From Escherichia coli (lineage in GTDB: Bacteria; Pseudomonadota; Gammaproteobacteria; Enterobacterales; Enterobacteriaceae): a stretch of 64,000 nucleotides of DNA. The DNA is taken from the NCBI RefSeq assembly GCF_003334335.1, contig NZ_QOWQ01000004.1; one strand, written 5' to 3'. A program made the position numbers and the translations under genes. The notes under the pieces are model-generated. The model was given only the letters and a program-made list of their open reading frames with translations. It was not told where the DNA came from and searched no databases. Positions 3,562 to 4,402 of the stretch are shown here, in pieces. Each line of letters opens with the position of its first letter. Within the stretch, counting starts at the first letter, position 1.

Positions 3562-3572
3562 CCTCCCCAAAA

Positions 3573-3590
3573 GCCTGCCCGTGGGCAGGC
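3573..3590. terminator. Bidirectional stem-loop between dnaJ and hokC
   Basis: GCCTGCCC-GTG-GGCAGGC hairpin; on the minus strand it is followed by TTTT, so it is the better terminator for hokC. Confidence 0.55.
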
Positions 3591-3664
3591 TTGGGTAAAA
3601 ATAGGGTGCGTTGAAGATATGCGAGCACCTGTAAAGTGGCGGGAATCACTCCCCGCCGTTGCTC

Positions 3665-3817
3665 TTACTCGGATTCGTAAGCCGTGAAAACAGCAACCTC
3701 CGTCTGGCCAGTTCGGATGTGAACCTCACAGAGGTCTTTTCTTGTTACCAGCGCCGCCACTACGGCGGTGATACAGATGACGATCAGGGCGACAATCATC
3801 GCCTTATGCTGCTTCAT
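3665..3817 (-). CDS. hokC: Hok-family small membrane toxin (type I toxin-antitoxin)
   Basis: 50-aa C-terminal part of the 80-aa ORF: MKQHKAMIVALIVICITAVVAALVTRKDLCEVHIRTGQTEVAVFTAYESE, a Hok/Gef toxin sequence. Confidence 0.85.
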   Translation of the reverse strand: MKQHKAMIVALIVICITAVVAALVTRKDLCEVHIRTGQTEVAVFTAYESE

Positions 3818-3874
3818 TGCTCTCTTCTCCTTGACCTTACGGTCAGTAAGAGGCACTCTACATGTGTTCTGCAT
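3665..3874 (-). CDS. mokC: Overlapping regulatory reading frame of the hok toxin (mok)
   Basis: 69-aa frame MQNTCRVPLTDRKVKEKRAMKQHK... containing hokC in the same frame; hok/mok architecture. Confidence 0.7.
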   Translation of the reverse strand: MQNTCRVPLTDRKVKEKRAMKQHKAMIVALIVICITAVVAALVTRKDLCEVHIRTGQTEVAVFTAYESE

Positions 3875-3920
3875 ATAGGGGGCCTCGGGTTGATAGTAAA
3901 ATATCACTCGGGGCTTTTCT
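3866..3920 (+). ncRNA. sokC: Sok-type antisense RNA of the hokC locus (position inferred)
   Basis: Placed by analogy with K-12 hok/sok geometry (antisense overlapping the mok start); boundaries not directly read from the sequence. Confidence 0.45.
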
Positions 3921-4402
3921 CTATCTGCCGTTCAGCTAATGCCTGAGACAGACAGCCTCAAGCACCCGCCGCTATTATATCGCTCTCTTTAACCCATTCT
4001 GTTTTATCGATTCTAATCCTGAAGACGCCTCGCATTTTTGTGGCGTAATTTTTTAATGATTTAATTATTTAACTTTAATTTATCTCTTCATCGCAATTAT
4101 TGACGACAAGCTGGATTATTTTTGAAATATTGGCCTAACAAGCATCGCCGACTGACAACAAATTAATTATTACTTTTCCTAATTAATCCCTCAGGAATCC
4201 TCACCTTAAGCTATGATTATCTAGGCTTAGGGTCACTCGTGAGCGCTTACAGCCGTCAAAAACGCATCTCACCGCTGATGGCGCAAATTCTTCAATAGCT
4301 CGTAAAAAACGAATTATTCCTACACTATAATCTGGTTTTAACGATGATTCGTGCGGGGTAAAATAGTAAAAACGATCTATTCACCTGAAAGAGAAATAAA
4401 AA

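Follow-up and report, generated by a model that had tools for sequence, protein, structure and literature searches.

Insertion elements are considered to have inactivated the hokA, hokC and hokE loci of E. coli K-12 (PMC12214031, PMC5630033). The IS186 element downstream of gef/hokC is thought to disrupt both the fold-back inhibitory element (fbi) and the normal processing of the mRNA (PMC3562002). What does the hokC locus look like on a chromosome where this element is missing, and is such a copy an active toxin–antitoxin module? We addressed this question in a 64,000-nucleotide stretch of E. coli contig NZ_QOWQ01000004.1, referred to here as the window, for which a preliminary description had proposed an uninterrupted and possibly functionally intact hok/sok module next to dnaJ. 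Our analysis gives us high confidence that the region is an empty-site, never interrupted hokC/mokC/sokC allele with every cis element of the R1 hok/sok mechanism, and that K-12 differs from it only by the IS186 in the loop of a 3' hairpin.

A complete hokC/mokC/sokC locus lies between dnaJ and nhaA

The window contains a segment of the E. coli chromosome with dnaK (426-2342), dnaJ, nhaA (4403-5569) and nhaR. A complete hokC/mokC/sokC type I toxin–antitoxin locus occupies the minus strand between dnaJ, whose stop codon ends at 3561, and nhaA. The hokC and mokC frames share a stop codon at 3667-3665 (minus strand), leaving a spacer of 103 nt (3562-3664) between it and the dnaJ stop. The preliminary description was therefore right to place a complete mok/hok frame just downstream of dnaJ, although it gave the distance as 104 bp.

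The hokC coding sequence (3817-3665, minus strand) specifies a protein of 50 residues, MKQHKAMIVALIVICITAVVAALVTRKDLCEVHIRTGQTEVAVFTAYESE, that is identical to HokC/Gef of K-12. It is nested inside mokC (3874-3665, minus strand), a leader frame of 69 amino acids that terminates at the hok stop codon. The mokC Shine–Dalgarno (SD) sequence, GAGG, is found at 3886-3883, 8 nt 5' of the AUG. The second mokC codon is CAG (Gln) in the window and in strain Nissle and CTG (Leu) in K-12 and O157.

Profile searches agree on the family. Residues 6-47 of HokC match HOK_GEF (Pfam PF01848) at 2e-24, and the NCBIfam Hok family matches with an E value of 2e-12, at 46.8 bits under its curated cut-off of 73. At the RNA level, the full Rfam model RF01794 (1-157) aligns to 3815-3967 of the minus strand, starting at GGGUGCUUGAGG and stopping at the hok AUG, and scores 118.8 bits where the gathering score is 59. 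The RF01794 and HOK_GEF matches together put the identity of the locus far beyond chance. The locus as a whole reaches approximately 3980, past the right edge of the interval 3562-3930 to which it had been assigned. That interval ends too early and so leaves out the translational activator element (tac), the 5' end of the mRNA and the hokC promoter.

The IS186 target site is empty in the window

In K-12 MG1655, annotation and alignment both confirm the IS186 that the preliminary description placed between dnaJ and hokC: it is IS186A, an element of 1.3 kb at 15387-16731. The alignment shows that it inserted in the loop of the hairpin that follows the hokC stop codon, GGCGGGGATCACTCCCCGCC, with a target duplication of 10 bp, GGATCACTCC, corresponding to window positions 3643-3652. 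A BLAST search of the whole window with K-12 IS186 returned nothing in 3562-4400, and its sole match was at 1-79. A single copy of the target and no remnant of the element are present in the window, and we conclude that the site is empty. The 3' disruption of K-12 is absent here.

The match at 1-79 shows that the genome has IS186, though not at hokC. These positions are the first 79 nt of the K-12 element, 100% identical and in reverse orientation, and they lie some 346 nt 5' of the dnaK start codon, adjoining the flank GGGATGAATACCC.

The K-12 locus, comprising hokC (gef), mokC and sokC (sof) (b4412, b0018 and b4413), has the same position between dnaJ and nhaA, the same HokC and the same sokC promoter as the window locus, and the two mRNAs differ at only a few bases. 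Whereas IS186A parts fbi and the remaining 3' UTR from the mRNA in K-12, the same site in the window is empty. The minor differences are mok codon 2 (Leu in K-12, Gln in the window), G3644A and three bases in the overlap of sok and mok. Position 3644 is A in the window and G in K-12, O157 and Nissle. On the hok strand, this substitution replaces a G-C pair by G.U, and the 8-bp stem of the hairpin is still predicted. In the sok/mok overlap, the window differs from K-12 and O157 at 3870, from K-12 at 3880, and from K-12, O157 and Nissle at 3895. A further change, in the Thr25 codon of hokC, is synonymous. The comparison with K-12 revealed no disabling point change in hokC, mok or the sokC promoter; both HokC and the region 3825-3865 are identical.

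Promoters, antisense RNA and regulatory elements

The start of the Rfam model and homology with R1 place the +1 of the hokC mRNA near 3967. The tac element then forms the 5' end of the mRNA (3967-3956, minus strand). A putative -10 box with the perfect sequence TATAAT lies 6 nt upstream of this +1 (3979-3974, minus strand), and a good -35 box is absent. Folding identified two further elements on the minus strand, the upstream complementary box or anti-SD (ucb), AAGCCCC, at 3916-3910, and the downstream complementary box (dcb), GCCUC, at 3854-3850, which is the partner of the SD sequence in the truncated fold.

The putative sokC promoter (3831-3859, plus strand) was placed by its sequence, by alignment and by its position relative to the annotated sokC start of K-12. 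It consists of a -35 box, TTGACC (3831-3836), and a presumed -10 box, CACTCT (3854-3859), which is a poor one. SokC antisense RNA itself occupies 3866-3924 on the plus strand according to coordinates transferred from the K-12 annotation. It is predicted to fold (-23.9 kcal/mol, z = -4.5) into a long hairpin with a U-rich tail and a free, single-stranded 5' tail of 9 nt, which is complementary to the mok start codon.

On the other side of the hok stop codon, the post-stop hairpin GGCGGGGAGUGAUUCCCGCC (GGCGGGAATCACTCCCCGCC) at 3657-3638 (minus strand) is the predicted 3'-end stem-loop of the truncated, translatable mRNA. Next come segments of the 3' UTR (3637-3617, minus strand), for which the full-length fold predicts two partners, the mok start region (3876-3871) and 3862-3855. 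Beyond these segments lies fbi, CUUCAACGCACCC (3616-3604, minus strand), which pairs with the 5' end of the mRNA. A G+C-rich hairpin, GCCTGCCCGTGGGCAGGC, at 3573-3590 completes the stretch between hokC and dnaJ, and on the minus strand UUUU follows it at 3572-3569. Given this UUUU on the hok strand, the hairpin, a candidate terminator that may be shared or bidirectional, probably terminates the primary hokC transcript. A hairpin is likewise placed beyond fbi in R1 hok and in hokE.

Our simple scan for consensus promoters and terminators missed the promoters of hokC and sokC as well as the hairpin at 3573-3590, the latter because fewer than five T are present. We therefore base the promoter and terminator assignments on homology with K-12 and R1. 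The two stem-loops noticed in the preliminary description, at 3573-3590 and 3638-3657, do exist. They are predicted functional parts of the 3' region of the hok mRNA and not neutral spacer.

The HokC reading frame also retains a site of RNA editing. TadA editing to Cys has been reported at this Tyr codon for hokC, hokD and hokE. The codon lies near the C-terminus of hokC and is edited at a low level in K-12 (PMC12214031, PMC5630033), where the Cys form accounts for 9% of hokC mRNA (PMC12214031). In the window, the Tyr47 codon UAC, followed by G, is kept at 3679-3677 (minus strand).

The hokC mRNA is predicted to switch between two folds

To compare folds, we calculated minimum free energy structures and partition functions for a full-length RNA (3967-3600), a truncated RNA (3967-3637; 331 nt) and a K-12 RNA that reads through into IS186, using inferred positions for the 5' and 3' ends of the hokC mRNA. 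The full-length RNA (z = -6.55) contains the pairing between fbi and tac that the preliminary description had suggested looking for: nt 1-12 (tac) pair with nt 352-364 (fbi) with probabilities of 0.94-1.00 and one bulged C. In the same structure, part of ucb (nt 54-56, window 3914-3912) pairs with the mok SD region, and the mok ribosome binding site is sequestered. Extending the RNA through the hairpin at 3573-3590 leaves the tac/fbi pairing unchanged.

The truncated RNA folds differently. Here, nt 1-8 pair with ucb (nt 52-58) with probabilities of 0.95-0.99, and the mok SD sequence GAGGC (nt 82-86) pairs with the GCCUC of dcb (nt 114-118). The mRNA of R1 hok switches from tac/fbi pairing to tac/ucb and SD/dcb pairing (PMC9841398), and the predicted folds of hokC reproduce this switch.

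Two controls bear on these predictions. The same folding procedure applied to R1 hok (L009) recovers its established tac/fbi pairing, and the K-12 RNA that runs into IS186 keeps the tac/ucb fold at lengths of 368, 450 and 644 nt. The K-12 element sits within the hairpin, cutting off fbi, which lies beyond it, so that the RNA stays in the open fold. This outcome bears out the reasoning of the preliminary description on the fold-back element of K-12, which the insertion separates from the mRNA, and the literature agrees.

Within the species, tac and fbi do not differ between K-12, O157, Nissle and the window. This invariance makes a covariation test powerless, and we turned to the paralogues R1 hok and hokE. 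When IS186B and its duplication, GGAGTAATCC, are resolved in silico to give an IS-free K-12 hokE (L011 500-511, 1850-1866), the predicted tac/fbi pairing is restored at the equivalent place. Across the paralogues, which number only three, the differences in tac and fbi compensate each other: R1 has GGCGC/GCGCC and hokC has GGGUGC/GCACCC, while at nt 7 hokC has a U-A pair and hokE a C-G pair.

Homology with R1 suggests that the hokC locus is transcribed, processed, controlled by SokC and able to kill, in the following way. A weak promoter would give rise to a hokC mRNA of roughly 365-400 nt. With tac paired to fbi and the mok ribosome binding site held by ucb, mok and hokC would stay untranslated and SokC binding would be blocked. 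Slow exonucleolytic trimming from the 3' end would then remove fbi and halt at the hairpin at 3657-3638. The trimmed RNA would refold into a structure with tac/ucb and mok SD/dcb stems. Finally, the refolded mRNA would either be bound by SokC and degraded or, with SokC absent, be translated to yield a membrane toxin.

Relation to other hok/sok loci

The elements found in the window are collinear with those of R1 hok/mok/sok (parB), in which the order is promoter, tac, ucb, mok SD, dcb/Sok promoter, hok, post-stop hairpin, spacer, fbi and terminator hairpin. The part 3' of the stop codon, consisting of a hairpin, a spacer of about 20-30 nt, fbi and a terminator-like hairpin, is common to R1 hok, hokC and hokE. 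R1 hok/sok and the window hokC belong to the same Rfam family and display the same predicted switch between full-length and truncated RNA. However, the two toxins have diverged, tac and fbi differ with compensating changes, and the window locus is chromosomal. In addition, killing of plasmid-free segregants, a property of R1 hok/sok, is reportedly not shown by IS-free hokC.

The K-12 paralogue hokE/sokE lies at another site (ybdK-entD) and encodes another toxin sequence. Its equivalent post-stop hairpin, GCGGGGAGTAATCCCCGC, contains IS186B, with fbi beyond the element; hokE is thus interrupted in K-12, unlike hokC in the window.

The uninterrupted hokC locus was already known. The hokC of strain ECOR24 is free of the IS186 insertion (PMC3562002). 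Pedersen and Gerdes reportedly described the IS-free state in 1999 for ECOR24 and other wild strains (Mol Microbiol 32:1090). By description, the ECOR24 locus has the same arrangement as the window locus and an intact fbi.

The uninterrupted site is the majority form

We surveyed 5426 complete E. coli genomes for the state of this site. A query of 159 nt across the site was contiguous in 3815 of them (70%), and the contiguous spacer was missing in the other 1611. A second query, joining the dnaJ-side flank to the terminal repeat of IS186, detected the element at the exact site in about 1605 of the 5426 genomes (29.6%). Orientation-specific junctions were counted in 821 and 940 genomes; their sum, 1761, exceeds both 1605 and 1611 by about 10%. 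Some junction-like copies lie on extra records, and the two orientation counts are only approximate. IS186 in ESY003 and in strain HS is opposite in orientation to that of K-12 and has the same duplication. The presence of both orientations implies at least two independent insertions, and about 1605 genomes occupied at a single position, in both orientations, mark it as a recurrent IS186 hot spot.

These results show that the IS-free state of the window is nothing special: it is the majority (3815/5426), ancestral and published form, and K-12 is the exception. Beyond correct annotation, the significance of the finding is slight, though it underlines that K-12 is atypical at hokC and that physiological work on chromosomal hok loci would be well advised to use empty-site strains. 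The census modestly restates in numbers what ECOR strains had already shown, with 70% of genomes intact and about 30% carrying IS186 at one site. Only this hot-spot census and the G3644A allele are new, and both mildly so.

The allele concerns the target of the element. The hairpin that contains the target corresponds to 3638-3657 in the window, to 381-390 and 1733-1742 in L001, and to 1960-1975 and 3300-3320 in ESY003 (L003). According to SaiSree et al. in 2001, IS186 reportedly favors a target consensus of at least four G, three to six nucleotides of any kind and at least four C. Both K-12 targets are of the form GGGG-N6-CCCC and presumably fit this published consensus: GGGG-ATCACT-CCCC in hokC of the K-12 type and GGGG-AGTAAT-CCCC in hokE, each with a duplication of 10 bp. 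In the window, G3644A shortens the run of G, giving the target GGG-AATCACT-CCCC with three G only. Just one of the approximately 1605 IS186-occupied genomes has the A3644 allele (BHUCD01), in a raw count uncorrected for shared ancestry. The allele could in principle be refractory to IS186, in a genome that has the element at other sites, among them the one upstream of dnaK, and so keep hokC available as a conditionally active module, perhaps in phage exclusion or persistence, but with ancestry uncorrected we assign this idea a low probability.

Architecture and activity of the uninterrupted allele

HokC is toxic when overexpressed, and the regulatory RNA architecture of the window allele is intact in silico. 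The preliminary description had gone a step further in proposing a functionally intact module. The architectural part of that proposal stands, but the functional part goes beyond the evidence. The single test reported for an allele of this kind is that of IS-free hokC from ECOR24, studied by Pedersen and Gerdes, which reportedly showed neither post-segregational killing nor activation by rifampicin. An intact architecture is therefore no guarantee of an active killer module. The ECOR24 failure, so reported, lowers the claim of an active killer module and leaves the claim of family membership untouched.

It is conceivable, at somewhat less than an even chance, that the locus is complete yet physiologically silent, a conserved chromosomal relic that serves as neither killer nor addiction module under the conditions tested and in which the presence or absence of IS186 has little phenotypic effect. 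About 30% of genomes have the element at this site, inserted in either orientation and at no obvious cost; in other genomes IS150 interrupts the leader or the locus is gone; and editing of hokC mRNA to the Cys form is low, at the 9% recorded in K-12 (PMC12214031). Silence is harder to reconcile with an RNA architecture that is conserved almost base for base among K-12, O157, Nissle and the window, and with an invariant open reading frame whose product is toxic on overexpression. Such conservation across phylogroups suggests purifying selection on some function.

A different concern is that this particular allele has been inactivated by its private point changes, namely A3644, the sok/mok overlap bases at 3870, 3880 and 3895, and the synonymous Thr25 codon. 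The alignment with K-12, O157 and Nissle does contain these differences, and substitutions that weaken the last 3' stem-loop of R1 hok abolish toxicity (PMC9841398). At 3644, however, G-C becomes G.U and the pairing of the 8-bp stem is kept, while each overlap base alters both RNAs together and so maintains their complementarity. With the mok frame open, Gln2 shared with Nissle and the predicted switch intact, we regard inactivation by these changes as quite unlikely. The 5'-3' pairing is, for its part, a single-sequence thermodynamic prediction that lacks within-species covariation, and it might be dismissed as a folding artefact, with the 3' hairpins serving merely as terminators of dnaJ and hokC. 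We consider this very unlikely indeed, as the pairing has a probability of about 1.0 in an RNA with z = -6.55 and vanishes from the K-12 IS186 read-through RNA. The protocol that predicts it also recovers the experimentally established R1 pairing, and in hokE an equivalently placed pairing is maintained by compensatory differences.

Variation around hokC and other features of the window

The neighborhood of hokC varies among strains. ESY003 (L003 3560-4995) contains an IS150 in the hokC leader/sokC region besides its IS186, and TUM2820 has no hokC at a site that lies between an IS186 remnant and IS1 (L004 1917-3910). In Nissle (L002 2484-3637) and HCM-27C-1 (L007 2480-3591), genes for an ompK-like outer membrane protein and a sulfatase-family protein lie between hokC and nhaA. 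Neither gene is present in the window or in K-12. In many genomes, just the first 66% of a 961-nt query finds a match, probably because of these two extra genes.

Just after nhaR, the window has an open reading frame of 207 amino acids (6572-7195, minus strand). Fimbrial genes are annotated at the equivalent position in ESY003 and TUM2820, and K-12 presumably has an IS1 there. Rfam matches at gathering level were also obtained for tpke11 between dnaK and dnaJ (2353-2430, plus strand), for the ES003 sRNA (22198-22250, plus strand) and for two adjacent copies of the REP-type naRNA4 (59277-59427, minus strand).
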